49,808 nucleotides of DNA from an uncultured archaeon (GTDB lineage: Archaea; Aenigmatarchaeota; Aenigmatarchaeia; Aenigmatarchaeales; Aenigmatarchaeaceae): NCBI GenBank assembly GCA_964347265.1, contig CAYFXV010000004.1:1-49808 (forward strand), written 5' to 3'. The notes under the pieces were generated by a model. The model was not told the DNA's origin and did not search any database. It saw only the letters and a program-made list of their open reading frames with translations. Made by a program: the position numbers and the translations under genes. The first letter of the stretch is position 1; every line of letters begins with the position of its first letter. Positions 2,280 through 49,333 of the stretch are shown in pieces.

Positions 2280-4115
2280 ATGAAAAAAAGAAGAAAAATT
2301 GAAGAAAAAGATTTGAAATTAAATAAAATATGCGTAGACACATCTGCATTGATTCACGGAAAAGTCACAGATTTAATTAAATCAAAAAAACTAGATAATT
2401 CTGAAATAATAATTCCTGAACTTGTTATAGGCGAATTACAAGCTCAAGCAACTAGAGGAAGAGAAATAGGATTTATGGGTCTAGAGGAAATAAAGAAAAT
2501 AAGAAAATTAAAGGACAAACATAGAATAAATTTGAATTTTCTTGGTGAAAGACCTAGTTATGAAGATATCTTATTAGCAAAATCAGGAAGAATAGATGCA
2601 TTAATACAAGATGTTGCAAGAGAAAATAATGCAGTTCTAGTTACATGCGATCTTTTACAAGGTTTGGTTGCACAAGCTCAGGGAATAAAAGTAAAATATT
2701 TTGAGTCTTATAAGAAAAAGAAAAGAATTAAAATAGAGAATTTTCTTTCTCATGATACTATGTCTATTCATTTGAAAGAGGGAGCTATTCCTTATGCAAA
2801 AAAAGGAAAACCTGGAAAAATAAAATTCATTGCATTAAGAAAAAAACCAATGAAATACGAAGAATTAGAAGCAATAGCTGCAGAAATTCTTGATACAGCA
2901 AGATATGAGGAAGATTCTTTTGTAGAACTAGGATTACACGGAGCAACAGTCGTTCAATTAAAGGAAAAAAGAATTTCAATAGCAAGAAAACCATTTTCAG
3001 ATGGATTAGAAATAACTTTAGTTAGACCAATAGTCAAACTAACTTTGGATGATTACAAACTTTCTAGTAAATTAAAAAATAGATTGTCGGAAAAAGCAGA
3101 AGGAATAATTGTAGCAGGACCTCCAGGGAGTGGAAAATCAACTTTCTCAGCTTCCTTAGCAGAATTTTACTTTAAACAAGGCAAAATTGTTAAAACTTTG
3201 GAACAGCCAAGAGATTTACAAGTTCCACCAGAGATAACTCAGTATGCTCCTTTAAATGGAAGCTTTGTAAAATCAGCCAATATACTTCTCTTGGTAAGAC
3301 CAGATTATACTATATTTGATGATGTAAGAAATCCTAAAGAGTTTGATATATTTTCTGATATGAGACTTGCAGGAATAGGAATGATAGGTGTTGTCCATGC
3401 CACAGATCCTGTTGATGCTGTTCAGAGATTTATAGGAAAAATAGAATTAGGAGTCATACCACATGTTATTGATACTATAATATATATTAAAGATGGAAAA
3501 ATTGAAAGAGTTTATTCTTTAAGCTTAACTGTTAGAGTTCCTATTGGAATGACTGAAGCAGACTTAGCAAGACCAATTGTAGAAGTCAGAGATTTTGAGA
3601 CAAAGAGTTTGAAATATGAAATATATACTTATGGAGAACAAACAACAGTTATCCCTGTTAAAAAAGAGAAAAAATCTGCTATACAGAAATTGGCTTCTGA
3701 TAGAATAAAATCAGAAATAAGAAGATTTGATCCTTCAGCAAAAATAGAATTCTTATCTGAGAATAATGTGATTGTGAAAGTTAACAACAAAATAATACCT
3801 AAATTAATAGGAAAGGATGGAAAAACAATAAAATCAATAGAAGATAAACTTGGAATTTCAATAGAAGTGCAACCTATTGTTGAATCTCTTGGAAAGGAAA
3901 TAAAATTCGATGTCCATGAAACAGGAGCTTATATTGTTTTTACATTTGATAAAAGGATTTCTGGTAAAAATGCAAATATTTATGTTGATGATGAATATAT
4001 GTTTTCTGCAACCATTGGTAGAACAGGACAAATAAAAATTTCTAAAGGTTCAGATTTAGGCAAGTCTTTATTAAGATCAATAACTGGCAGGAAAGGTATT
4101 AAAGTTTTTATATGA
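2280..4115 (+). CDS. PINA ATPase (PIN domain + PilT-like ATPase + KH domain)
   Basis: N-terminal PIN (CVDTSALI, TCD), Walker A GPPGSGKST, LLLVRPDYTIFD, GVVHAT, C-terminal KH LIGKDGKTI. Confidence 0.93.
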   Translation: MKKRRKIEEKDLKLNKICVDTSALIHGKVTDLIKSKKLDNSEIIIPELVIGELQAQATRGREIGFMGLEEIKKIRKLKDKHRINLNFLGERPSYEDILLAKSGRIDALIQDVARENNAVLVTCDLLQGLVAQAQGIKVKYFESYKKKKRIKIENFLSHDTMSIHLKEGAIPYAKKGKPGKIKFIALRKKPMKYEELEAIAAEILDTARYEEDSFVELGLHGATVVQLKEKRISIARKPFSDGLEITLVRPIVKLTLDDYKLSSKLKNRLSEKAEGIIVAGPPGSGKSTFSASLAEFYFKQGKIVKTLEQPRDLQVPPEITQYAPLNGSFVKSANILLLVRPDYTIFDDVRNPKEFDIFSDMRLAGIGMIGVVHATDPVDAVQRFIGKIELGVIPHVIDTIIYIKDGKIERVYSLSLTVRVPIGMTEADLARPIVEVRDFETKSLKYEIYTYGEQTTVIPVKKEKKSAIQKLASDRIKSEIRRFDPSAKIEFLSENNVIVKVNNKIIPKLIGKDGKTIKSIEDKLGISIEVQPIVESLGKEIKFDVHETGAYIVFTFDKRISGKNANIYVDDEYMFSATIGRTGQIKISKGSDLGKSLLRSITGRKGIKVFI

Positions 4116-4127
4116 AGGTTGTTAATC

Positions 4128-4430
4128 ATGCCAATATATAGATTAACAGTTTTTGGAAAACAATCTCATGCATCAATGCCATGCTCAGGAGTAAATGCTA
4201 TCAGGTATGGAGCTAGATTAATATCAATGATGGAGATGCGCCTAGTGAGTATAGAGGGCGGACTTGCAGATAATATTATACCACCTTCATGTGAATTTAC
4301 TTTTAGTTCAGAAAAAAGTTTGAGAGAACTAAGAAAAAATGCTACAGAACAAATGGAAAAAATTAAAGAAGAGGGAGATAGATTAGTAAAAAAAAATTTG
4401 AGATATGAAATAGAATTATTGTATCCATGA
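4128..4430 (+). CDS. Small protein resembling an isolated M20 peptidase dimerisation domain
   Basis: GKQSHASMPCSGVNAI and IEGG..DNIIPPSCEF match the dimerisation-domain pattern of the M20 gene at 1-725; ATG 4128 preferred over TTG 4119. Confidence 0.6.
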   Translation: MPIYRLTVFGKQSHASMPCSGVNAIRYGARLISMMEMRLVSIEGGLADNIIPPSCEFTFSSEKSLRELRKNATEQMEKIKEEGDRLVKKNLRYEIELLYP

Positions 4431-4472
4431 GTTTATATAATTTTTATACTCTTAATTTCTATTAATCAATAT

Positions 4473-4547
4473 GCTCCTGTAGCTCAGTTTGGATAGAGCG
4501 GCTGCCTCCTAAGCAGTAGGTCGTGCGTTCAAATCGCACCAGGAGCA
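4473..4547 (+). tRNA. tRNA-Arg(CCT), intronless
   Basis: GCTCCTG/CAGGAGC acceptor, GCTGC-CT-CCT-AA-GCAGT anticodon arm, GTGCG-TTCAAAT-CGCAC T arm. Confidence 0.96.
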
Positions 4548-4581
4548 TTATTTTTTATATAAAACAACACGATAATTAATT

Positions 4582-5277
4582 ATGAAAAAAGAAAGAATAG
4601 AAACAGGAATCCCAGGAGTAGACAAATTAATAGGAGGAGGTCTATTGCCTCATTCTTTAACTTTATTAACAGGAACAACAGGAACAGGAAAAACTGTAAT
4701 GTCATCTCAATTCATTTATTTTGGAGTTAAAGAACATGATGCTCCTGGAGTTTACGTCAGTTTTGAAGAACCTGTAGATAATATAAGGAGAGATTGTTTG
4801 GATTTTGGTTGGGATTTTGAACCTTTAGAAAAGAGAAACAAAATTATTTTTGTTAGGTATGATCCTTTTCATGTTGAAGATATTTATGAGTTAATAGAAA
4901 CCAATGTTAAAAAGATAGGAGCAAAAAGAGTTGTTATAGATTCTATATCTGCTTTAGGTTTATATGTAAGAGATATTCCAGACATAAGAAGAATGGTATT
5001 TAACATATCATTGCTTTTAAGAAAATTAGGTTGTACATCAATTTTGATTTCTGAAACTTTGCCAATGCAAAATTCGTTATCAAGATTTGGAGTAGAGGAA
5101 TTTGTGACAGACAATGTTATTGTTTTATATTATACTAAGACAGGTTCTCAATTTTCAAGAGCGCTAACAATATGGAAAATGAGAGGTTCTGAACACTCAA
5201 ATAAGCTTCATCCTTATAGAATATCAAATAAAGGTGTTACAATATATAGTGAAGAAGAAGCATTTTCAAAACTTTAA
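4582..5277 (+). CDS. Single-domain KaiC-like (RAD55/GvpD) RecA-superfamily ATPase
   Basis: TGIPGVD, Walker A GTTGTGKT, YVSFEE, VVIDSI, IWKMRGSEH. Confidence 0.9.
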   Translation: MKKERIETGIPGVDKLIGGGLLPHSLTLLTGTTGTGKTVMSSQFIYFGVKEHDAPGVYVSFEEPVDNIRRDCLDFGWDFEPLEKRNKIIFVRYDPFHVEDIYELIETNVKKIGAKRVVIDSISALGLYVRDIPDIRRMVFNISLLLRKLGCTSILISETLPMQNSLSRFGVEEFVTDNVIVLYYTKTGSQFSRALTIWKMRGSEHSNKLHPYRISNKGVTIYSEEEAFSKL

Positions 5278-5308
5278 AGATATATATAAACTGTTCTAAA
5301 TTTATCTT

Positions 5309-6250
5309 ATGCCTAAAAGGACTAAGAAACACAGAACCAAAAAGCATATCAAGAAAATTAAGAAAGAAAAAGTAAAAGATTATCATTTTTTAAAGGTTCC
5401 AGCAATAAAACTTTTTGGTAGATCAGCAGATAAATATTCTGATTATTTTAATATAATAAAAACATCACTCCATAAGGCCGATGCAAAAATTTTATTTAGA
5501 ACTTATTTATCAATTATGTTCTTTCTCACGTCATTTGTTTTTGTTTTGTCACTCTTCTCTACTTTAGCATTTTCAATACATTTAGGTTTGAATATTTTAC
5601 AAACCATTTTAGGCTTGTTAATTTTACCAACTTTATTTTCTATTGTTACATTTCTTTCATATTATATTTATCCAATATCTTCGGCACAAAGAAGAAAAAA
5701 TGACATAGAATCAAATTTACCTTTTGCATTAAATCATATGTCAGCTATTGCAGGTTCTGGGGTTCCTCCAAGAGTCATGTTTAAAGTTATTTCAAGATTT
5801 AGGGAATATGGAGAAATTTCTAAAGAGGCGAACAAAATAAGAAGAAATGTCGAAGTTTTCGGTATGGATGAAATGACATCCATAAAAGAAGTTGCATCAA
5901 AATCTCCGTCACCACTCTTTAAAGACTTCTTACAAGGAATTCTAACAACAATTCAAACAGGAGGTAATCTTAACAATTTTTTAAAAGAAGAGGCTGAAAA
6001 AGCAATGTTTGATTATAGGATTAGAAGAAATAAGTACGTACAACAATTAACAATTTATGCAGATTTCTATACAGCATTGCTAATTGCAGCTCCTCTCATT
6101 TTCATAATAATGTTGCCTATTTTAAGTATAATGCAAGGAACCTTATTTGGATTTGGAATACATGAATTGATAAATCTTGGTTTAATCTCGCTTACAGTTT
6201 TAAATATAGGATTTTTAATATTCCTTCAATTAACTCAACCTAAAATGTGA
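5309..6250 (+). CDS. Type IV pilus membrane platform protein (T2SSF/TadC/ArlJ-like)
   Basis: IESNLPFALNHMSAIAGSG, YGEISKE, TGGNLNNFL, multiple TM segments. Confidence 0.88.
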   Translation: MPKRTKKHRTKKHIKKIKKEKVKDYHFLKVPAIKLFGRSADKYSDYFNIIKTSLHKADAKILFRTYLSIMFFLTSFVFVLSLFSTLAFSIHLGLNILQTILGLLILPTLFSIVTFLSYYIYPISSAQRRKNDIESNLPFALNHMSAIAGSGVPPRVMFKVISRFREYGEISKEANKIRRNVEVFGMDEMTSIKEVASKSPSPLFKDFLQGILTTIQTGGNLNNFLKEEAEKAMFDYRIRRNKYVQQLTIYADFYTALLIAAPLIFIIMLPILSIMQGTLFGFGIHELINLGLISLTVLNIGFLIFLQLTQPKM

Positions 6251-6254
6251 TTTA

Positions 6255-7061
6255 ATGAAAAAATCAAACCTCTTAATGAAAATAACATTGTTAACTACTC
6301 TAATAGGAATTTCACTTGCTATTTTAAATTTGATTTTGTTATCATCATTCACTTTAAGCGTAGTTTCTATTGTTATTATACCAATAGGTCCTTTTGTTTA
6401 TCAATATAGAAAATACAAAGAAAATAAAGAGATTGAAGAGAGATTTCCAGATTTTTTAAGAGATGTAGCACAAAACATAAGAACAGGAATGACAATACCT
6501 CAAGCAATAAAAGCAACAAAAGGTACTTATTATGGAGCATTAAGTCCTTATGTTGGAAAAATGATTGTTCAAATAGACTGGGGAGTCCCTTTTAATAAGA
6601 TTCTTACAGACTTTGCAAACAACACAACTAAATCTTTGAGAAGAACTGTTTTAACAATAATAGATACTCATAAAGGTGGAGGCGATATCGCCGACATATT
6701 TGATTCTGTTGGTAAAAGTATTATTGAAATTAATAGAATAAATAAAGAACGCTATTCTGTAATTTATAACCAAATGTTAACAGGATACATAATTTTCTTT
6801 GTTTTCATAGGAGTTTTAATTATGATGCAAATATATTTGATTCCAAGCTTACAAACCTTTGCTGCTCCAGAGGTTGGAATCTCAACTTTTGAACAGCTTG
6901 GCGGTTTTTATGCTAATGTTTTCAGGATACTTATAATATTACAAGGATTTTTCTCCGGTTTAGTTATAGGTAAATTATCTGAAGGTAGTACAATATCAGG
7001 CTTAAAGCACTCTATACTTTTAGTTATTATAGGTTCTCTTGCGCTTTGGGCTTTCATATAG
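6255..7061 (+). CDS. Second type IV pilus membrane platform protein (T2SSF/TadC-like)
   Basis: IEERFPDFLRDVAQNIRTGMT, YGALSP, GGDIADIF, QGFFSGLVIGKLSEG. Confidence 0.88.
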   Translation: MKKSNLLMKITLLTTLIGISLAILNLILLSSFTLSVVSIVIIPIGPFVYQYRKYKENKEIEERFPDFLRDVAQNIRTGMTIPQAIKATKGTYYGALSPYVGKMIVQIDWGVPFNKILTDFANNTTKSLRRTVLTIIDTHKGGGDIADIFDSVGKSIIEINRINKERYSVIYNQMLTGYIIFFVFIGVLIMMQIYLIPSLQTFAAPEVGISTFEQLGGFYANVFRILIILQGFFSGLVIGKLSEGSTISGLKHSILLVIIGSLALWAFI

Positions 7062-7092
7062 ATTTTTATTGTGGGTTAATCTACCATTTATT

Positions 7093-7503
7093 ATGAAAGC
7101 ACTTTATCCACCATTATCATACACACTTTTTATTGTAATCAGTATCGCTGCTTTATCTATTATATTAATAATAGTAAACACTTTTTCAGAAAATATACAA
7201 AGAAATTATGCTTATGGTCAATTAAATTATATAGCAGAAGTTATAAGACAAGATATTTTAAAATTGTACTCTACAAATGCTGAAGGAAGATTAGAATTAT
7301 CTATTCCTAAAGATATTATTGGAAAACAATATTTGATAGAGCTAGATCAAAAAAATTTAAAATTAAGTCTTGAATTTAAAGACGAAAGAATAGAAGTAGA
7401 ACGTTTTATAAATACTAGTGCTTCTTTAAGTGGAAGATTTTTCGCACCAGTTTCAATTGAAATGAATAAAACAAATGGAGACATTTCTATAAAGTTGGTT
7501 TAA
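7093..7503 (+). CDS. Pilin-like protein
   Basis: MKA followed by hydrophobic N-terminal helix (class III signal-like); lies in pilus cluster; ATG 7093 preferred. Confidence 0.65.
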   Translation: MKALYPPLSYTLFIVISIAALSIILIIVNTFSENIQRNYAYGQLNYIAEVIRQDILKLYSTNAEGRLELSIPKDIIGKQYLIELDQKNLKLSLEFKDERIEVERFINTSASLSGRFFAPVSIEMNKTNGDISIKLV

Positions 7504-8214
7504 ATGAGTCATATAGATTTTGCAATAGGTTTTGTTTTAATAATCTCAACAATATTTTTAATAATTTATTTTACTTCGAATTCTATATCAAATAATGTTA
7601 ATGATTTAAGTGTAAATGAAATTAAAGAATCTTCTTTATCTTTAGAAAAATATTTGTTTGAAATAAGTGATGATAAAAGTTTAATTTCAACTTTTAGAGA
7701 ACTTCAAACAATTCTAACTGAAGTTAATGATACAGATCATAGTGAAGAAATAAGAATATCAATAAAACCAGATGTTAGCAAAGTTAAAGTTTATGATAAT
7801 TTAATGAATGAAATCCCTTCAACATCTTCCCAATTAGTAGGAGAAACTGTTTTATCCTTTTTGCAAGATTTTACTGCAAACGAAGAGAAAAGTATTGGCA
7901 TATATTATTTTGGGGATGCAGTTGTGGATATTGATTATCTTTCTACTGAAAATAATATAAGTCTTAGAATACTCTCTAATAAAGAATTAAATGTGGTCTC
8001 TCAAGAAAAATGTTCTAATTTTAAAAGCAAATCTTATGAATATATTAAAGAAGATTTTGGTTTTCAAAATCAATTCAGACTAGATTTAGATGGTTGTAGT
8101 TACGGTCCAGAACCATCACTAACAGCAAATATAATACTTAAAAATATTCCCGTACTTTCTGAAAATTCTGATGGTTTGTTAAGAGCTAAAATTGCTAGGT
8201 TGAGAATATGGTAA
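7504..8214 (+). CDS. Pilin-like / pilus accessory protein
   Basis: N-terminal hydrophobic helix MSHIDFAIGFVLIISTIFLIIYF; coupled to neighbouring genes. Confidence 0.6.
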   Translation: MSHIDFAIGFVLIISTIFLIIYFTSNSISNNVNDLSVNEIKESSLSLEKYLFEISDDKSLISTFRELQTILTEVNDTDHSEEIRISIKPDVSKVKVYDNLMNEIPSTSSQLVGETVLSFLQDFTANEEKSIGIYYFGDAVVDIDYLSTENNISLRILSNKELNVVSQEKCSNFKSKSYEYIKEDFGFQNQFRLDLDGCSYGPEPSLTANIILKNIPVLSENSDGLLRAKIARLRIW

Positions 8215-8585
8215 TGAAAGGTTATGTTAAAACATTAGAAGCTGGAATTGCAATTATCTTAATTTTAATTTCAATGGTATTTTTATTTCCTGAAAAAACA
8301 AAAACCGAACCTCAAATCTCAGATGTAGGTTATAATTGTTTAAAATATTTAGATTATGGCAAGTCTTTAAGATATTATGCAGTAAATGATTTTGAATCCG
8401 ATTTGATTAATGATTTACGGAGTTGTTTACCTCCAATACTAAATTATACAGCAAAAATATGTACCACTACTCTTTGTAATACTGAACTTCCCTCAGATAA
8501 AACAGTCTTTTTATCAAGTTACTTAATAAGTGGAGAAGATTCTATTAACCCAGTTTTAATTAATCTTTGGGTTTGGTCAACATGA
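8214..8585 (+). CDS. Minor pilin-like protein
   Basis: MKG/YVKTLEA plus hydrophobic helix; TAATG overlap with upstream gene. Confidence 0.7.
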   Translation: MKGYVKTLEAGIAIILILISMVFLFPEKTKTEPQISDVGYNCLKYLDYGKSLRYYAVNDFESDLINDLRSCLPPILNYTAKICTTTLCNTELPSDKTVFLSSYLISGEDSINPVLINLWVWST

Positions 8586-8950
8586 AGGGACAAATTTTTA
8601 TAATGGCTGCAGTGTTAGTTTTAATAGCATTAATTTTGCTCAGAAATGCAATACAATCAATTGAAATTAAACCTAAGAATCTTCTTTATGAAAATTTTGT
8701 TAATTTAAAAAATGAATTAATTAAGACAGTAGACCTATCAATCTTAAATCAAGAAGATATTACAACAAATTTGAATAATTTTATAACATTTTCTACAAAT
8801 GTTCTTGAGCAAAGAGACTATGATGAAACTGTTGTATTTGAAATTTTTACTTATGGTAATACTACTGAAGTTTATATGAACATTTCCCTTAAACTAGAAA
8901 ATTCATTTATAGAAGATAAATTTATAATTAACAGGACGGTTTATTCATGA
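8582..8950 (+). CDS. Minor pilin-like protein
   Basis: MKG/QIFIMAAVLVLIALILL class III signal; ATGA overlap. Confidence 0.75.
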   Translation: MKGQIFIMAAVLVLIALILLRNAIQSIEIKPKNLLYENFVNLKNELIKTVDLSILNQEDITTNLNNFITFSTNVLEQRDYDETVVFEIFTYGNTTEVYMNISLKLENSFIEDKFIINRTVYS

Positions 8951-10434
8951 AAGGAATTGATACCTTAATAGCGGCAGTTTTTATTATTTTAATTTCTATA
9001 GTGGGTATTATAATTGTTTTAGAAACCAGCCAATCTTCTATCGGAAGATTAGAAGAAATAAGTTTGATGGAAGAGGGTCGAGATATTTTAACTCAAATAG
9101 ATAACGCTGTTAGAGATGTTGCACAACAAGGTGAAGGATCAAGCAGAGTGTTGACAATTAGTGTAAGTGGTGGAAATTATTTTATAGACACAGAAAATGA
9201 AGCTGTTGTCTTTTCTATGTCTAGCCATTCCCAAATACTTGGTGTAGGTATTTCTAAAACTGAAGGAAACATAAACATGTTCGGAGAAATAAATAGAGTT
9301 TTTTTGAATATATCACATTCTAATGTAAATATTACTGAGGGAGGTAGATTCGGAAGGGGATATCATAATTTATTTATAAGAAACAATGGCTATGATTTTG
9401 CAAATCAAAAACAGATAATTAGTATATCATTAATACCAGTGTTGCCTCCAACTGCTATAACAGTTCAATTCAATCAGTCCGGTTCACCACTTATAGTGAG
9501 CGGAATTTATTTCAGTGGGTCTGCAGATGATTTAAACACTTTAGGTGAAGGAAGTACATACGATGTTGAAGAGGAGGGCTCAGTTTTTGGTGAATCACAG
9601 TATGCAAGACCAAGTTCTGATTTTTCAACAGGAAATTGGTTGGATTATCTATACAGTGAACCACTTTATGATGATATAGACGAGATTACAGTAGATGATG
9701 CTGATTATATTCAATCATCAATTAATCCTTCAGTTGATGTTTGTGATATAGGACTTTCATCTGTTACAGATCCCGAAGTTCATACAGGACATATTGTCAG
9801 ATATAGATATGCAGCAGTAATGTCAGGAACAGGTAAACCATCAGAAATAGATTTAGTAGTTAGACTCATGGAAGGCACTACTGAAATAGCAAGTTGGTCG
9901 CACAGTAATTTAGCTGGCGACCTTCCATTTGTAACATCAACACAAACACTTACGGAAGAACAAGCAAGTCTAATTTCAGATTATTCAAATTTAAGATTAA
10001 GATTCATAGCAAACAGGGTTGGAAGAGGTACAAGAGATATCTGGATTGAAATTTCATGGACAGAATTTGAGATTCAAGGCGAAGAAATTAATTATGAAGT
10101 AGAGGTTTGGCATAATTCTACTCCAATTAGCTATTCTGGAAATTTATACAGTATTAATGTTACTGTTAATTTCACAACTAATTTTTTTGACACATACTCT
10201 TTGCAAATTTATGATTGGACAAATTTACAATGGACTTCTACAGGTTGTGGTTCAGGTGATGTTCAACCAGACACACCAACACAATGGTGGTGTACTGAAA
10301 ATATTGACCCTATGAACTACAATTCTTCTGATAATATAGTAAGGATTAGAATTAAATCAACTGCTGATTCAGATCAAGGAACTTTAAAAGAAGATTACAT
10401 ACAATATTTTGTTAATTATATTCCACCTTCATAG
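8947..10434 (+). CDS. Large minor pilin / putative adhesin
   Basis: MKG/IDTLIAAVFIILISIVGIIIV class III signal; acidic, beta-rich C-terminal domains. Confidence 0.75.
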   Translation: MKGIDTLIAAVFIILISIVGIIIVLETSQSSIGRLEEISLMEEGRDILTQIDNAVRDVAQQGEGSSRVLTISVSGGNYFIDTENEAVVFSMSSHSQILGVGISKTEGNINMFGEINRVFLNISHSNVNITEGGRFGRGYHNLFIRNNGYDFANQKQIISISLIPVLPPTAITVQFNQSGSPLIVSGIYFSGSADDLNTLGEGSTYDVEEEGSVFGESQYARPSSDFSTGNWLDYLYSEPLYDDIDEITVDDADYIQSSINPSVDVCDIGLSSVTDPEVHTGHIVRYRYAAVMSGTGKPSEIDLVVRLMEGTTEIASWSHSNLAGDLPFVTSTQTLTEEQASLISDYSNLRLRFIANRVGRGTRDIWIEISWTEFEIQGEEINYEVEVWHNSTPISYSGNLYSINVTVNFTTNFFDTYSLQIYDWTNLQWTSTGCGSGDVQPDTPTQWWCTENIDPMNYNSSDNIVRIRIKSTADSDQGTLKEDYIQYFVNYIPPS

Positions 10435-10447
10435 AAACCTTTATATG
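10434..10447 (+). promoter_or_regulatory. BRE-TATA promoter of major pilin (probably leaderless mRNA)
   Basis: GAAACC-TTTATATG ending 24 nt before ATG 10471; no SD motif. Confidence 0.6.
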
Positions 10448-10470
10448 CAGAGTTTTGCAATTTTTATAAC

Positions 10471-10902
10471 ATGAAAGGAATATCTCCAATTATAGCATCG
10501 GTTTTGTTAATTGCAATAACTATGAGTATTGCTGTTGTTTTGGCAGCCTATGTTACTACTTATACTAGAGAGGCTACAGAAGCTATACCATCAGCTTGTA
10601 TTGGTGGAGCACTGTTCTTTACAGAAACTTCTCCAACATATGATTCAGGAACTTGTGAGATCACCGCAGGTATAGAAGCACAATTTGTTGATTTAAATGG
10701 TTTTGTGGTTCAAACTGACAGAGGTGGAGTTATAAGTAATCAACCAACTACAGGCGTTACAGAATTAGATGCAGGTGATGCTGGAACAGTATATGCAGAT
10801 TTAGGAATTTCACCATGTCCAACAGATGTAGATTATGTCAGAGTTACGACAGCAAATTGTTTCAATGTTAGAACAGCTTGGGCAGCACCAACAGTAGTTT
10901 AA
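10471..10902 (+). CDS. Archaeal type IV pilin (probable major pilin)
   Basis: Canonical MKG/ISPIIASVLLIAITMSIAVVL N-terminus; 4 Cys; own promoter. Confidence 0.9.
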   Translation: MKGISPIIASVLLIAITMSIAVVLAAYVTTYTREATEAIPSACIGGALFFTETSPTYDSGTCEITAGIEAQFVDLNGFVVQTDRGGVISNQPTTGVTELDAGDAGTVYADLGISPCPTDVDYVRVTTANCFNVRTAWAAPTVV

Positions 10903-15039: not shown

Positions 15040-15149
15040 AGCCCCGTAGTGTAGCGGCCAAGCACACAGGGCTTTGGTCATAAGACTAAAGCATTGAGCT
15101 TTGCTATGAAAGAAACCCTGTAACGCAGGTTCGAATCCTGCCGGGGCTA
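15040..15149 (+). tRNA. tRNA-Gln(TTG) with 37-nt intron (15078-15114) at 37/38
   Basis: A1-U72 acceptor AGCCCCG/CGGGGCT; CAGGG/CCCTG stem; BHB helix CTTT/AAAG and outer CATA/TATG. Confidence 0.93.
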
Positions 15150-40003: not shown

Positions 40004-40930
40004 ATGGGTTGGCTAATAAAAAAACATGAAGCATCATTAACACCTTTTGGTTGTTATCCTGGTGCAAGAAGTTTAGAAGAACATATAAAAAATGGAATAA
40101 TAATTTTAGACAAACCTCCAGGACCAACTTCTCATAATGTTGATAAATGGATTAAAGATATATTAGAAGTAAAAAAATGCTCACATGGAGGCACATTAGA
40201 TCCAAGGGTTTCAGGAGTTCTAGTAATAGCATTAGAAAATGCAACAAAATTAATGCCAATTCTCTTATCATCTAAAAAAGAATATATAGGAATAATTAAC
40301 CTTCATGAGGAAGTTGAAAAGAAAAAAATTGAAAAAGCATTCAAAAGTTTTATTGGAAAAATTAAACAAATACCTCCTAAAAAATCTGCTGTTGCTAGAA
40401 AAGAAAGGGAAAGAGAAGTTTATTATTTAGAACTATTAGAACTAAAAGAAAGAAAGATCTTATTTAAAATTGGTTGCGAAGCTGGGTTCTATGTTAGAAG
40501 ATTTGCAGATGATTTAGGAAAGGAACTAGGAACAGGAGCACATTTACAGGAATTGAGAAGAACAAAAAGTGGAAATTTTTTTGAAGGATCTGCAATAACT
40601 TTACAAGATTTAGTTGATGCTAAAGAGGAAAATAGACTAAAAGAAGTTGTACTTCCTATGGAATTAGTTGCTGAAAACATAGGAAAAATAATAGTATCAG
40701 ATAATGCTATAGATAATATTTGTAATGGAGCACCTTTGGCTATTGGGGGAATTGTTAGATTTGAAGACAATATAAAAAAAAGACAATGGGTTGCTTTATT
40801 TTCTTTGAAAGGTGAGTTAATAGCTATTGGAAAAGCTCTAATGAATTCTGAAATGATATTAAATAAGAAAAGAGATTTGGCAGTTAAAACTGATAGGGTT
40901 CTAATGAAAAAAGGAACTTATCCAAAATAA
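40004..40930 (+). CDS. cbf5: H/ACA pseudouridine synthase Cbf5 (TruB family, PUA domain)
   Basis: LDKPPGPTSH, HGGTLDPRVSGVL, AHLQELRRTKSG, PUA domain, KTDRVLM..GTYP. Confidence 0.96.
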   Translation: MGWLIKKHEASLTPFGCYPGARSLEEHIKNGIIILDKPPGPTSHNVDKWIKDILEVKKCSHGGTLDPRVSGVLVIALENATKLMPILLSSKKEYIGIINLHEEVEKKKIEKAFKSFIGKIKQIPPKKSAVARKEREREVYYLELLELKERKILFKIGCEAGFYVRRFADDLGKELGTGAHLQELRRTKSGNFFEGSAITLQDLVDAKEENRLKEVVLPMELVAENIGKIIVSDNAIDNICNGAPLAIGGIVRFEDNIKKRQWVALFSLKGELIAIGKALMNSEMILNKKRDLAVKTDRVLMKKGTYPK

Positions 40931-41018
40931 TTTTTCTAAATTTTAAAAAACATGAAAAACTTTATAAGCTCATAAAATCATCTTATAAGAGGCGTTTACT
41001 ATACCTAGAGGGTAAAAA

Positions 41019-42215
41019 ATGATAGTTATTGAAGATTTACACTCAGTCCCCACTTCTGAACAAAAAGTAGAAGTTGTAGAAAGAAAAGGCATTGGACACC
41101 CAGACACCATTTGTGATTCTTTGATGAATAAAGTTTCTGTAGAGCTTTCAAAATATTATTTAGATAAGTTTGGAATAATACTTCATCATAACATTGATAA
41201 AGGCCTTTTGGTTGCAGGAGAAGCAGAACAAAAATTTGGAGGCGGAAAATTAACAACTCCAATGCTTTTGGTTTTTGGAGATAGAGCTACTTATGAATTC
41301 GAGGGACAATTAATTCCTGTTACAGAAATTGCTGTTGACAGTGCAAAAAAATGGTTTAAAGAAAATTTCAGATTTGTTAATCCTGAAAACGATGTGAATT
41401 ATCAAGTTGAATTAAAAAGAGGTTCCGCTGCTCTTAGAGACATATTTTTTAGGAAAGGAGAACTTTTAGGAGCAAATGATACATCCGCAGCAGTTGGTTA
41501 TGCTCCTTTAACAGAAATTGAAAAAATAATTTTGAGTACTGAAAAATTTTTAAATAGTAAAAGTTTTAAGAAAAGATTTCCTGAATCAGGAGAAGATATT
41601 AAAATTATGGGTTTGAGAACCAATGGAGAAATACATTTGACAGTTGCAATGCCGTCAGTAGATAGATTTGTTGAAAGTGAGAACGATTATTTTAGAAAAA
41701 AAGAAAAATTTATTGAGGAAATTAAAGATTTTGTTGCTAAAAAAACTGATTTCAAAACCTTTGTTTTTCTAAACACTTTAGATGCTAAAGGTAGAGGAAT
41801 TGATGGTTGTTATTTAACAGTTACTGGAACTTGTGCAGAGGATGCAGATTGTGGACAAGTTGGCAGAGGCAACAGAGTTAACGGTTTAATACCCTTGAAC
41901 AGACCTGTTAGTAATGAAGCAGCTGCTGGTAAAAACCCAGTTAGTCATGTTGGAAAAGTATACAATCTTTTAAGTCATAAAATTGCTAACGAAATCTATG
42001 AAAATGTTAGTGGTATAAAAGAAATTTACGTTTGGCTTTTAAGTCAAATTGGAATGCCTATTGATAAGCCGAAAATTGCTGCTGCACAAGTGATAATGAA
42101 TTCTGGTTCAGTTGATGACGTAAGAAAAGAGGTTAATGAAGTTATTCAGAAAGAATTCTCAAATATTAAACAGTTCTGTTTAGATTTAGCTCATGGAAAA
42201 TATGAAATTTGTTAA
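41019..42215 (+). CDS. mat: S-adenosylmethionine synthetase, archaeal type
   Basis: VERKGIGHPDTICD, LHHNIDK, ANDTS, GEDIKIMG, GRGNRVNGLI, GKNPVSHVGKVYN. Confidence 0.96.
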   Translation: MIVIEDLHSVPTSEQKVEVVERKGIGHPDTICDSLMNKVSVELSKYYLDKFGIILHHNIDKGLLVAGEAEQKFGGGKLTTPMLLVFGDRATYEFEGQLIPVTEIAVDSAKKWFKENFRFVNPENDVNYQVELKRGSAALRDIFFRKGELLGANDTSAAVGYAPLTEIEKIILSTEKFLNSKSFKKRFPESGEDIKIMGLRTNGEIHLTVAMPSVDRFVESENDYFRKKEKFIEEIKDFVAKKTDFKTFVFLNTLDAKGRGIDGCYLTVTGTCAEDADCGQVGRGNRVNGLIPLNRPVSNEAAAGKNPVSHVGKVYNLLSHKIANEIYENVSGIKEIYVWLLSQIGMPIDKPKIAAAQVIMNSGSVDDVRKEVNEVIQKEFSNIKQFCLDLAHGKYEIC

Positions 42216-45248: not shown

Positions 45249-45434
45249 ATGGTAGCTAGAAGAAGAAAAACAAGAAGAAAGACAAAAAGAAAGAAAAAAG
45301 CTTTCGGTGGTTATAGAATACATCCAGATGAACACTTAGAAAAGATAGTTGGTAAGAAACCAATAACACCATCTGAAATGACTAAAAAAATATGGTCACA
45401 TATTAGAAGAAAGAAGCTTGGAAAGAAAAAATAA
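45249..45434 (+). CDS. Small basic protein with SWIB/MDM2-like domain
   Basis: AGGTGA SD; Arg/Lys tail then HPDEHLEKIVGKKPITPSEMTKKIWSHIRRKKL. Confidence 0.75.
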   Translation: MVARRRKTRRKTKRKKKAFGGYRIHPDEHLEKIVGKKPITPSEMTKKIWSHIRRKKLGKKK

Positions 45435-45504: not shown

Positions 45505-45695
45505 GCCGTCGTGGCAGAACCAGGTAAATGCGCCAGAATCGTCTCAAGTTTTGATTTTGAGATGATAGCGATACTTGAGACAGATGATATTATGGCTTGA
45601 CTCTGAAATGCGGCGTAATGAAGAGTAAAAAGTAAAGTGATGTCGAGTTATCTGGTGCCCGAAAGGGCTTGCAGGTTCAAATCCTGCCGACGGCG
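45505..45695 (+). tRNA. tRNA-Ser(TGA) with two introns: 45537-45572 (30/31, 36 nt) and 45580-45649 (37/38, 70 nt)
   Basis: GCCGTCG/CGACGGC acceptor, G73, long variable arm GCCC-GAAA-GGGC; removing both introns restores CCAGA-CT-TGA-GA-TCTGG. Confidence 0.85.
45580..45649 (+). ncRNA. Putative box C/D guide sRNA encoded in tRNA-Ser intron 2
   Basis: ACA/TGT terminal stem; C ATGATAT 45584-90; 12 nt; D' CTGA 45603-06; C' ATGAAGA 45618-24; 12 nt; D GTGA 45637-40. Confidence 0.7.
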
Positions 45696-49200: not shown

Positions 49201-49333
49201 GCGGAGGTAGCCAAGTCTGGTCTAAGGCGCAGGACTTAAGATCGGACTCTTAAGTTTTGATGCAAGTAAATCTTGCTATGATAAGAAATCCTGTGGGTTA
49301 GTCCCTTCGTCGGTTCAAATCCGGCCCTCCGCA
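49201..49333 (+). tRNA. tRNA-Leu(TAA) with 47-nt intron (49241-49287) at 37/38
   Basis: GCGGAGG/CCTCCGC acceptor, A73, long variable arm, CAGGA/TCCTG stem, BHB helix CTTA/TAAG. Confidence 0.93.

Follow-up and report, generated by a model that had tools for sequence, protein, structure and literature searches.

A transfer RNA (tRNA) gene of an uncultured archaeon of the Aenigmatarchaeota, tRNA-Gln(UUG), carries a 37-nucleotide (nt) intron that is probably a miniature, self-targeting methylation guide of the box C/D type. The gene lies in a 49,808-nt stretch of DNA (contig CAYFXV010000004.1), the whole of which was analysed and is called the window below. The intron contains a segment complementary to the anticodon loop of its own host, in the register by which box C/D guides select a nucleotide, followed by two boxes that can form a kink-turn. 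On the reading that we favour as likely, L7Ae, Nop5, and fibrillarin would use this module to 2'-O-methylate the wobble nucleotide U34 (yielding Um34) on the pre-tRNA, which would then refold and be spliced. Coordinates of the features are collected in Table 1.

The Rfam tRNA model matches the gene with 55.2 bits and places a 40-nt insertion in the anticodon loop. ARAGORN makes no call on the unspliced sequence and recognizes a normal tRNA-Gln(ttg) after splicing in silico. As read from the sequence, the acceptor stem is formed by 15040-46 and 15142-48, and the anticodon stem by CAGGG (15067-71) and CCCUG (15116-20); the loop reads C32, U33, U34 (15074), U35, G36, and G37 (15077), with A38 (15115) following the intron. 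The intron has the build of an archaeal bulge-helix-bulge (BHB) intron at position 37/38, with a central helix of four base pairs (bp; CUUU 15072-75 with AAAG 15109-12) between two 3-nt bulges (GG-U 15076-78 and AA-A 15113-15, the hyphen marking the splice site) and a further helix h' (CAUA 15079-82 with UAUG 15105-08). An identical copy of the gene is present in Logan contigs from two independent metagenome runs. A co-occurring related strain in run X2 carries G>A at 15128 and C>U at 15138, a compensatory change in one T-stem pair, and no differences in the covered part of the intron (15098-15114).

The guide GACUAAAGC and the target strand GCUUUGGUC form a 9-bp duplex with a single G-U pair (U15087-G15076). 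The fifth base upstream of the UUGA box (n5) is A15089, which pairs with U15074, that is, U34, in agreement with the rule for box C/D guides. In the predicted kink-turn, G15108 and A15109 are the sheared G.A partners of A15097 and G15096, and two A-U pairs, A15110-U15095 and A15111-U15094, are formed. A published kink-turn test (PMC7994747) asks that each box contain GA, that a U precede the GA of box C or C', and that C6 form a Watson-Crick pair with D1; in the window copy (UUGA/AUGAAAG), it finds G.A, A.G, A5-U2, and A6-U1. The segment AAAG (15109-12) belongs both to the C' box and to one strand of the BHB central helix. The initial annotation of this DNA had described a 37-nt intron in tRNA-Gln(UUG), the 9-bp pairing with one G-U, a D-like UUGA that places A15089 opposite U34, and a C-like AUGAAAG. 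The intron is borne out by the sequence parse, Rfam, and ARAGORN after splicing, the coordinates of the pairing are all correct, and the boxes can be read directly.

No second GA/GA motif was found at the ends of the intron or in the exons, and the architecture of archaeal C/D small RNAs (sRNAs), with two kink-turns in an RNA of ~50–70 nt, is absent. By its sequence, the motif is a D'-hairpin/loop-C' kink-turn of the K-loop type and the sole kink-turn of the intron, which marks the putative guide as a half-mer and not a full C/D sRNA. The element thus appears to resemble the D' half of a canonical C/D sRNA, and we do not count it among the canonical ones because two kink-turns and, in the window copy, consensus boxes are both missing.

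Comparison with other tRNA-Gln(UUG) genes supports this reading. A scan of metagenome contigs with exon bases only (GGGCUUUGR, a gap, ACCC, and the T-loop) returned, with the window copy included, at least 120 genes with at least 96 distinct introns of 12–42 nt. Among the matches listed, to which all counts of Gln introns in this text refer, 23 of 96 distinct introns contain the module, defined as a 7-nt guide, one spacer nucleotide, NNGA, a loop, and RUGA. The guides have the pattern [C/U]-[C/U]AAAGC, complementary to nt 31-37, and the register is constant, with the fifth base upstream of the box facing U34 (23/23). The NNGA box is UUGA in sixteen introns, CUGA in five, and CGGA and UCGA in one each, and the loop spans 3–13 nt. 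Introns with the YUGA form number 21, against 0.0025 expected per set from shuffles. Any 7-nt complement to nt 31-37 occurs in 24 introns, 23 of which are the module introns. The remaining 73 introns, mostly GC-rich and short, keep the splice motif, and only one of them has a 7-nt complement. Splicing therefore needs no guide, and the putative guide is best read as an extra function, strictly kept where present. Loss of complementarity in orthologs had been named at the outset as a test that could count against the guide; with the module kept in register in these introns, its outcome is favourable.

Within the 23 introns, conservation is confined to the parts with a predicted function. Guide positions n8-n2 are invariant save n7, which is C or U, either of which pairs with G36, while neither the leader that precedes the guide nor the loop that separates the boxes is constant in length or sequence. 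Between the window and one related locus (L125), the adjacent threonyl-tRNA synthetase gene has 76.5 per cent identity; the introns differ at three leader bases only and are identical over 15084-15114. Some orthologs have canonical boxes (AUGAUGA in L075; CUGA in L091, L095, L144, L158, and L181). The kink-turn of L080 is of textbook form, with UUGA, a 5-bp hairpin (GAGCC-UA-GGCUC), a 3-nt bulge (UGU), and GA; the layout of the window copy is alike, save that its helix has 2 bp (UUGA, GC-UUU-GC, UAU, GA).

The two boxes also covary. Over the 23 introns, the D'1:C'6 pair is U-A in 16, C-G in 6, U.G in 1, and never a mismatch. The D'2:C'5 pair is U-A, U.U, or U.G; D'2 is a base other than U in only two introns, and both are compensated, by G-C in L119 (CGGA/AUGACGA) and by C-G in L128 (UCGA/AUGAGAG). 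In a fixed-column alignment of the 23 introns, the covariation score is 0.230, compared with 0.142 ± 0.027 for shuffled data, and was reached by 1 of 500 shuffles; sliding the box partners abolishes the D'/C' pairing. The 5' exon halves of L158 (CUGA...G6) and L084/L183 (UUGA...A6) are identical (28 nt upstream of G29), and at least one recent double change must therefore have occurred. Judged by this pattern, the D'/C' boxes behave as a C/D kink-turn. A separate feature of UUGA-type introns (L134, L162, and many Gln orthologs) is that guide, spacer, and box together read CAAAGCUUUG, a perfect 10-nt palindrome, by which two introns or two pre-tRNAs could dimerize; CUGA-type introns do not have this palindrome.

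Two explanations that deny the module a present role can be weighed on these data. If the complementarity had arisen by chance in an A/U-rich intron, parts of it would not be surprising: a 9-bp duplex with G-U allowed appears in ~1 per cent of mononucleotide shuffles of the intron, and any 7-nt complement in ~9 per cent. Yet the whole module (a 7-nt guide in register, YUGA, and a downstream RUGA) arises in only 6–7 × 10^-5 of shuffles, although each of the three intron-bearing tRNAs of the window has it, as do 23 independent, distinct orthologs; chance is effectively refuted and its probability negligible. The likeness among introns might instead be a relic of common descent or of introns that spread from one tRNA gene to another, with complementarity to the insertion site that served integration and boxes without present function. 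The Gln and Leu introns of the window are indeed alike at their 3' ends (both end in UUGCUAUGA + 4 nt + AA), and several DPANN tRNAs have multiple introns. A relic would not be expected to show compensatory covariation of its boxes, guides that are invariant while nearby intron bases drift, or a module that is 100 per cent conserved between genomes whose flanking genes are ~76 per cent identical; moreover, most other tRNA-Gln introns splice without complementarity. We regard this origin as very improbable.

The pairing also bears on the substrate. In 21 of the 23 introns, the first intron base is paired to guide position n9 (A-U, U-A, U.G, or G.U), both sides changing, whereas n9 could pair with A38 of a mature tRNA in 6 of 23. 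This difference supports the unspliced pre-tRNA as the putative substrate, which the initial annotation had named as the best target. In the window, the duplex takes in intron bases 1-2 and thus spans the exon-intron junction, as in guides of the tRNA-Trp type. That annotation had further held that the guide is masked by AAAGC/GCUUU in the splice-competent fold and that a conformational switch is implied. The masking helix (15088-92 with 15098-102) is seen in the minimum free energy (MFE) fold. The kink-turn shares bases with the BHB central helix or h', and the guide takes up the anticodon-loop bases of that helix; the guide and BHB states are therefore mutually exclusive. When both conformers are folded, they lie 0.7 kcal/mol apart (−42.2 for the guide state and −42.9 for the BHB state). 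For tRNA-Leu(UAA), described below, the guide state has −47.6 and the BHB state −43.6, the guide duplex being the MFE structure. Two exclusive, near-isoenergetic states make the proposed switch plausible and imply methylation before splicing.

The binding of proteins, the methylation, and the order of events are predictions drawn from the elements, their register, conservation, and covariation, and the two folds. In the unspliced pre-tRNA-Gln, 15084-92 would leave its intra-intron hairpin and pair with nt 31-37 and two intron bases, and UUGA and AUGAAAG would fold around the tiny hairpin into a kink-turn or K-loop with tandem sheared G.A and two A-U pairs. This kink-turn would be recognized by L7Ae, which would bring in Nop5-fibrillarin, and fibrillarin would then methylate the 2'-OH opposite the fifth guide base upstream of D', converting U34 to Um34. 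The ribonucleoprotein (RNP) would have to dissociate before splicing, because the kink-turn and the guide duplex use bases of the BHB helices; refolding into the BHB would then allow the endonuclease to remove the intron, with methylation first and splicing second. Once excised, the intron might serve in trans as well, on further pre-tRNA-Gln molecules.

The same exclusivity can be read in another way, in which the module is a timer of folding or splicing: it would bind L7Ae and keep the anticodon loop sequestered, and the bound protein would retain the pre-tRNA in a conformer other than the BHB, so that splicing is delayed or regulated, or the loop protected, without fibrillarin. Besides the near-isoenergetic exclusive folds, a single kink-turn, which is atypical of C/D RNPs, speaks for this view, as does an L7Ae gene on a module-bearing contig (L091). 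L7Ae is universal in archaea and also binds kink-turns outside the C/D class, which fits a timer as well. We nevertheless hold a timer to be unlikely: a helix that only sequestered the loop would not need the distance from guide to box to be fixed at one nucleotide across all lineages and tRNAs, it would not be expected to centre on 34 or 39, which are known C/D-guided sites of pre-tRNA-Trp, and the D'1:C'6 and D'2:C'5 pairing gives the kink-turn its C/D flavour.

Alternatively, the excised intron could be the functional guide, a stable linear or circular RNA acting in trans on other pre-tRNA copies or on an unrelated target, and the complementarity in cis would be incidental. The RNP of the tRNA-Trp intron works in trans in vitro, and the leaders of 3–4 nt in some orthologs preclude a full duplex in cis. 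The sole conserved complement found, however, is the host anticodon loop together with the intron's own first base. Such a guide would at most differ in acting in trans instead of in cis, still on one and the same species of pre-tRNA, which makes it a variant of the methylation guide proposed here and not a competitor; as a separate explanation, we consider it distinctly unlikely.

The module is not confined to tRNA-Gln. All three intron-bearing tRNAs of the window, tRNA-Gln, tRNA-Leu(UAA), and tRNA-Ser(UGA), have U34 and the module; the intron-less tRNAs there are Arg(CCU) and Ser(GGA). In tRNA-Leu(UAA), the hairpin between the boxes is GCAAG/CUUGC (49262-76), and n5 (A49252) faces U34 (49237). 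In tRNA-Ser(UGA), GUCUCAAGU of intron 1 pairs with ACUUGAGAC (45573-81), so that n5 (A45546) faces U34 (45576); the splice sites of this intron are ambiguous by 1 nt, and a clean BHB cannot be drawn. Standard tRNA finders overlook such genes: ARAGORN missed all three, and tRNA-Ser(UGA) was reported neither by ARAGORN nor by Rfam at its gathering threshold, although splicing in silico gives an 86-nt tRNA-Ser(tga). The intron option of ARAGORN misparsed nearly all intron-bearing tRNAs (Gln as 'tRNA-Stop', Met as 'tRNA-Ser'), and introns were therefore parsed by hand or with regular expressions before ARAGORN was run on the spliced sequences.

A scan of GTDB genomes with the 3' motif common to the window introns revealed modules in further tRNAs. 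The Leu(UAA) module recurs in L011 and L017. Elongator tRNA-Met(CAU) genes of Micrarchaeota/Marsarchaeota yielded more than 30 introns of 41–45 nt (L002-L068); the guide pairs with nt 31-36 in 15 of 15 parsed distinct introns and with nt 37 as well in 12 of 15, and n5 faces C34. At the D' site, the Micrarchaeota tRNA-Met introns have GUGAUGA, which mimics a box C. Their reading as an upstream box C GUGAUGA with a box D UAUGA was rejected, as no C-stem is possible and the arrangement does not fit the Gln family. A tRNA-Ser(UGA) with a canonical CUGA module, targeting U34, shares contigs with module-bearing tRNA-Gln in L134 and L162. In one Woesearchaeota tRNA-Trp, n5 faces C34 with a weaker duplex of 6 bp. 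Position 39 is addressed across the 3' splice junction in tRNA-Cys(GCA) (L026; 9 bp, n5 facing C39) and tRNA-Leu(UAG) (L057 and L022; 6 bp, n5 facing C39); these loci and a candidate, L003, come from Woesearchaeota, an uncultured archaeon, and a metagenome-assembled genome (MAG) labelled Methanosarcinales. Positions 34 and 39 are targeted separately, with a guide to 34 alone in Gln, Leu(UAA), Ser, and Met and a guide to 39 alone in Cys and Leu(UAG). The module loci range from 25 to 54 per cent GC. Searching all loci for a relaxed form of the module yielded 106 matches, compared with 48 on reversed sequences, and many of them are thus false positives; the matches served as candidates only and were then verified by hand. 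We lean, if narrowly, towards a wider proposal: that single-kink-turn C/D guides are widespread in short tRNA introns of DPANN archaea, and perhaps of others, each methylating position 34 or 39 of its host pre-tRNA as a natural half-mer whose specificity comes from tethering to the substrate, and that they are a reason for intron retention in reduced genomes.

Table 1. Features of the three intron-bearing tRNA genes of the window and of their guide modules
Feature	Coordinates	Strand	Description	Basis
tRNA-Gln(UUG) gene	15040-15149	+	5' exon 15040-15077; 3' exon 15115-15149	Rfam; hand parse; ARAGORN after splicing
tRNA-Gln intron	15078-15114	+	37 nt; canonical position 37/38; hBHBh' motif	Sequence and folds
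Target strand GCUUUGGUC	15071-15079	+	nt 31-37 and intron bases 1-2; U34 = 15074, predicted 2'-O-methylation site	
Guide (anti-anticodon) GACUAAAGC	15084-15092	+	n10 to n2; 9-bp duplex; unpaired spacer n1 = A15093	
D'-type box UUGA	15094-15097	+	Non-bulged kink-turn strand; ortholog forms UUGA, CUGA, CGGA, UCGA	
Mini hairpin GC-UUU-GC	15098-15104	+	Closes kink-turn (C-helix or K-loop loop); L080 equivalent is a 5-bp hairpin	
C'-type box AUGAAAG	15106-15112	+		Comparison and folds
tRNA-Ser(UGA) gene	45505-45695	+	Two introns	Exposed by module scan
tRNA-Ser intron 1	45538-45573	+	36 nt, at ~31/32; guide GUCUCAAGU 45541-45549, n1 U45550, D' UUGA 45551-45554, C' AUGAUAG 45562-45568	
tRNA-Ser intron 2	45580-45649	+	70 nt, at 37/38; full C/D sRNA-like	
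tRNA-Leu(UAA) gene	49201-49333	+	47-nt intron 49241-49287	Rfam; ARAGORN after splicing
tRNA-Leu(UAA) module	49248-49284	+	Guide UCUUAAGU 49248-49255, n1 U49256, D' UUGA 49257-49260, C' AUGAUAA 49278-49284	

The closest precedent is the box C/D guide in the pre-tRNA-Trp intron of Haloferax volcanii and Pyrococcus (Clouet d'Orval 2001; Singh 2004; as related in PMC11408192, PMC2584109, and PMC7994747). As portrayed in these accounts, it shares with the Gln intron the 37/38 position and the BHB, an intronic antisense segment across the exon-intron junction, and the N+5 rule directed to 34 (and 39), and there too the pairing excludes the BHB, so that methylation precedes splicing. By the same accounts, the tRNA-Trp intron has 60–105 nt, C/D and C'/D' boxes, and two guides (34 and 39), whereas the Gln intron has 37 nt, one D'/C' pair, and one guide, to U34. 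Positions 34 and 39 are precisely the sites that the tRNA-Trp intron guides. Reviews of 2021 and 2024 list the tRNA-Trp intron as the only intron-borne guide, and Grosjean et al. (2008) described pre-tRNA-Trp as unique in carrying the boxes and the guide for Cm34 of tRNA-Met as 'always exonic'. The Micrarchaeota/Marsarchaeota Met introns, with their predicted C34 guide, contradict the generalization that this guide is always a separate gene. In Nanoarchaeum equitans, also of the DPANN, elongator tRNA-Met has a stable, C/D-like intron of 66 nt, and the genome encodes fibrillarin and Nop56 (Randau 2012; PMC3491384). As described there, that intron resembles ours in lineage, in having one C-like and one D motif, and in its proposed role as a methylation guide; it belongs to another tRNA and is longer, and the text as read reports no target register or comparative support. 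The Micrarchaeota tRNA-Met introns may be a miniature of the N. equitans case.

The predicted target itself is orthodox: in Pyrobaculum, the trans-acting sR27 has U34 of tRNA-Gln as a predicted site (PMC6009581), Um34 was found in tRNA-Gln(UUG) of S. acidocaldarius (PMC7668247), Pyrococcus sRNAs target the wobble bases of Leu(UAA), Leu(CAA), Met, and Trp, and haloarchaeal sR-tMet likewise targets the wobble base. These trans-acting sRNAs address the same class of N34 (Gln, Leu(UAA), Met) but are stand-alone genes with two kink-turns, whereas here the guide lies within the intron of its substrate. That one kink-turn and one guide can suffice for activity is indicated, as far as these sources describe it, by engineered half-mers (PMC1635284) and by a minimal single-domain small nucleolar RNA (snoRNA; Deryusheva and Gall 2019, in PMC7994747). 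The snoRNA as described has a terminal stem and a guide placed between C and D, whereas here the guide is outside the D'-loop-C' hairpin and tethered to the target. The K-loop of archaeal C/D sRNAs, in the description of Nolivos (2005) given in PMC7994747, offers the nearest structural match, with D', a short loop, and C', tandem G.A, and D'1-C'6 pairing; unlike that K-loop, the motif here stands alone, with no terminal C/D kink-turn, and its loop is often enlarged to a hairpin (window, L080, Leu, Met).

Several observations weigh against a methylation guide. The window boxes depart from consensus (AUGAAAG matches RUGAUGA at 4/7 positions, and UUGA matches CUGA at 3/4), and Rfam gives no C/D family match over the intron, even at E ≤ 10. 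The intron has only one kink-turn and one guide, and engineered archaeal single-site C/D RNPs, though active, lost site specificity in vitro, for which both motifs were needed (Hardin and Batey 2006; PMC1635284). The duplexes measure 7–9 bp, compared with the usual 10–12 nt of archaeal guides, and the orthologs with short leaders could form the full duplex in trans only. Elsewhere in the family, D'1:C'6 is mostly A.G in Micrarchaeota tRNA-Met, the tRNA-Ser guide of L017 has a C.A mismatch at A36, and in tRNA-Leu of L011 the D' C1 stands opposite C' U6. A motif search found no fibrillarin or Nop5 genes in the 50-kb window, nor in the window plus 1.3 Mb of fetched loci, where the sole L7Ae gene is that of L091; no RNA-seq runs containing the locus or its 10-kb neighbourhood were found. 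On the machinery, a gene in the window for the H/ACA pseudouridine synthase Cbf5 (domains TruB_N, PUA, and DKCLD) is adjacent to one for an archaeal S-adenosylmethionine (SAM) synthetase (40004-42215, + strand); with Cbf5 present, L7Ae-dependent RNA-guided modification machinery is in use in this genome.

The retention of introns in archaeal tRNA genes has long called for an explanation, and the only accepted functional case, to our knowledge, is the tRNA-Trp intron, a full C/D sRNA. What would be new here is the carrier, an intron of 29–47 nt that bears a single kink-turn and a single guide and occurs in several tRNAs besides tRNA-Gln. The module could explain why such introns are retained in this genome and in many DPANN archaea. 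If the proposal holds, intron-borne guidance reaches six or more additional kinds of tRNA (Gln, Leu(UAA), Leu(UAG), Ser(UGA), Met, and Cys) in lineages of 25–54 per cent GC, provides a natural test of whether site specificity of archaeal C/D RNPs requires two kink-turns, and suggests how very small genomes secure wobble methylation without separate guide genes.

Further observations concern the other introns. Intron 2 of tRNA-Ser(UGA) has box C AUGAUAU (45584-90), a 12-nt guide, D' CUGA (45603-06), C' AUGAAGA (45618-24), a second 12-nt guide, and D GUGA (45637-40), and its Rfam matches are weak (Afu_298 with 17 bits, and sR17). Compared with the ortholog in L017, the D' guide UAUGGCUUGACU is conserved and the D guide is not; the conserved D' guide is also written as UAUGGCUUGAC, and the complement expected in a target is GUCAAGCCAUA. 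The 3' splice region was considered as a cis target of this guide and rejected, as the pairing is not conserved in L017. The tRNA-Leu(UAA) genes of L017 (minus strand, ~2664-2900) and L011 (minus strand, ~6536-6730) have extra introns absent from the window copy, namely a D-loop insertion and ~17 nt at 31-33, making up to three introns per gene.

The window is AT-rich (GC 0.27–0.34), occurs in sediment-type metagenomes, and is collinear with L017 (an uncultured archaeon; 75–83 per cent nucleotide identity) and L011 (a Candidatus Aenigmatarchaeota MAG; 76 per cent). On this nucleotide similarity, its source is most likely a member of the DPANN archaea. Its genes include those for threonyl-tRNA synthetase, ribosomal proteins S12, S7, L3, and L4, elongation factors EF-2 and EF-1alpha, SecY, adenylate kinase, Cbf5, and SAM synthetase. 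A regular-expression search of the window for stand-alone C/D sRNAs returned only loose C...D matches, apparently within listed open reading frames (ORFs). An ORF at 45249-45434 (+ strand) encodes 61 lysine/arginine-rich amino acids with half of a SWIB/MDM2 domain (Pfam, 24.4 bits, with a cut-off of 25), a domain unusual in archaea. The region 2280-10902 (+ strand) encodes a protein with PIN, secretion-ATPase, and KH domains and, after it, a KaiC-like ATPase, a pair of membrane proteins of the T2SS-F-like kind, and ORFs resembling pilins, and looks like a type IV pilus-like locus.

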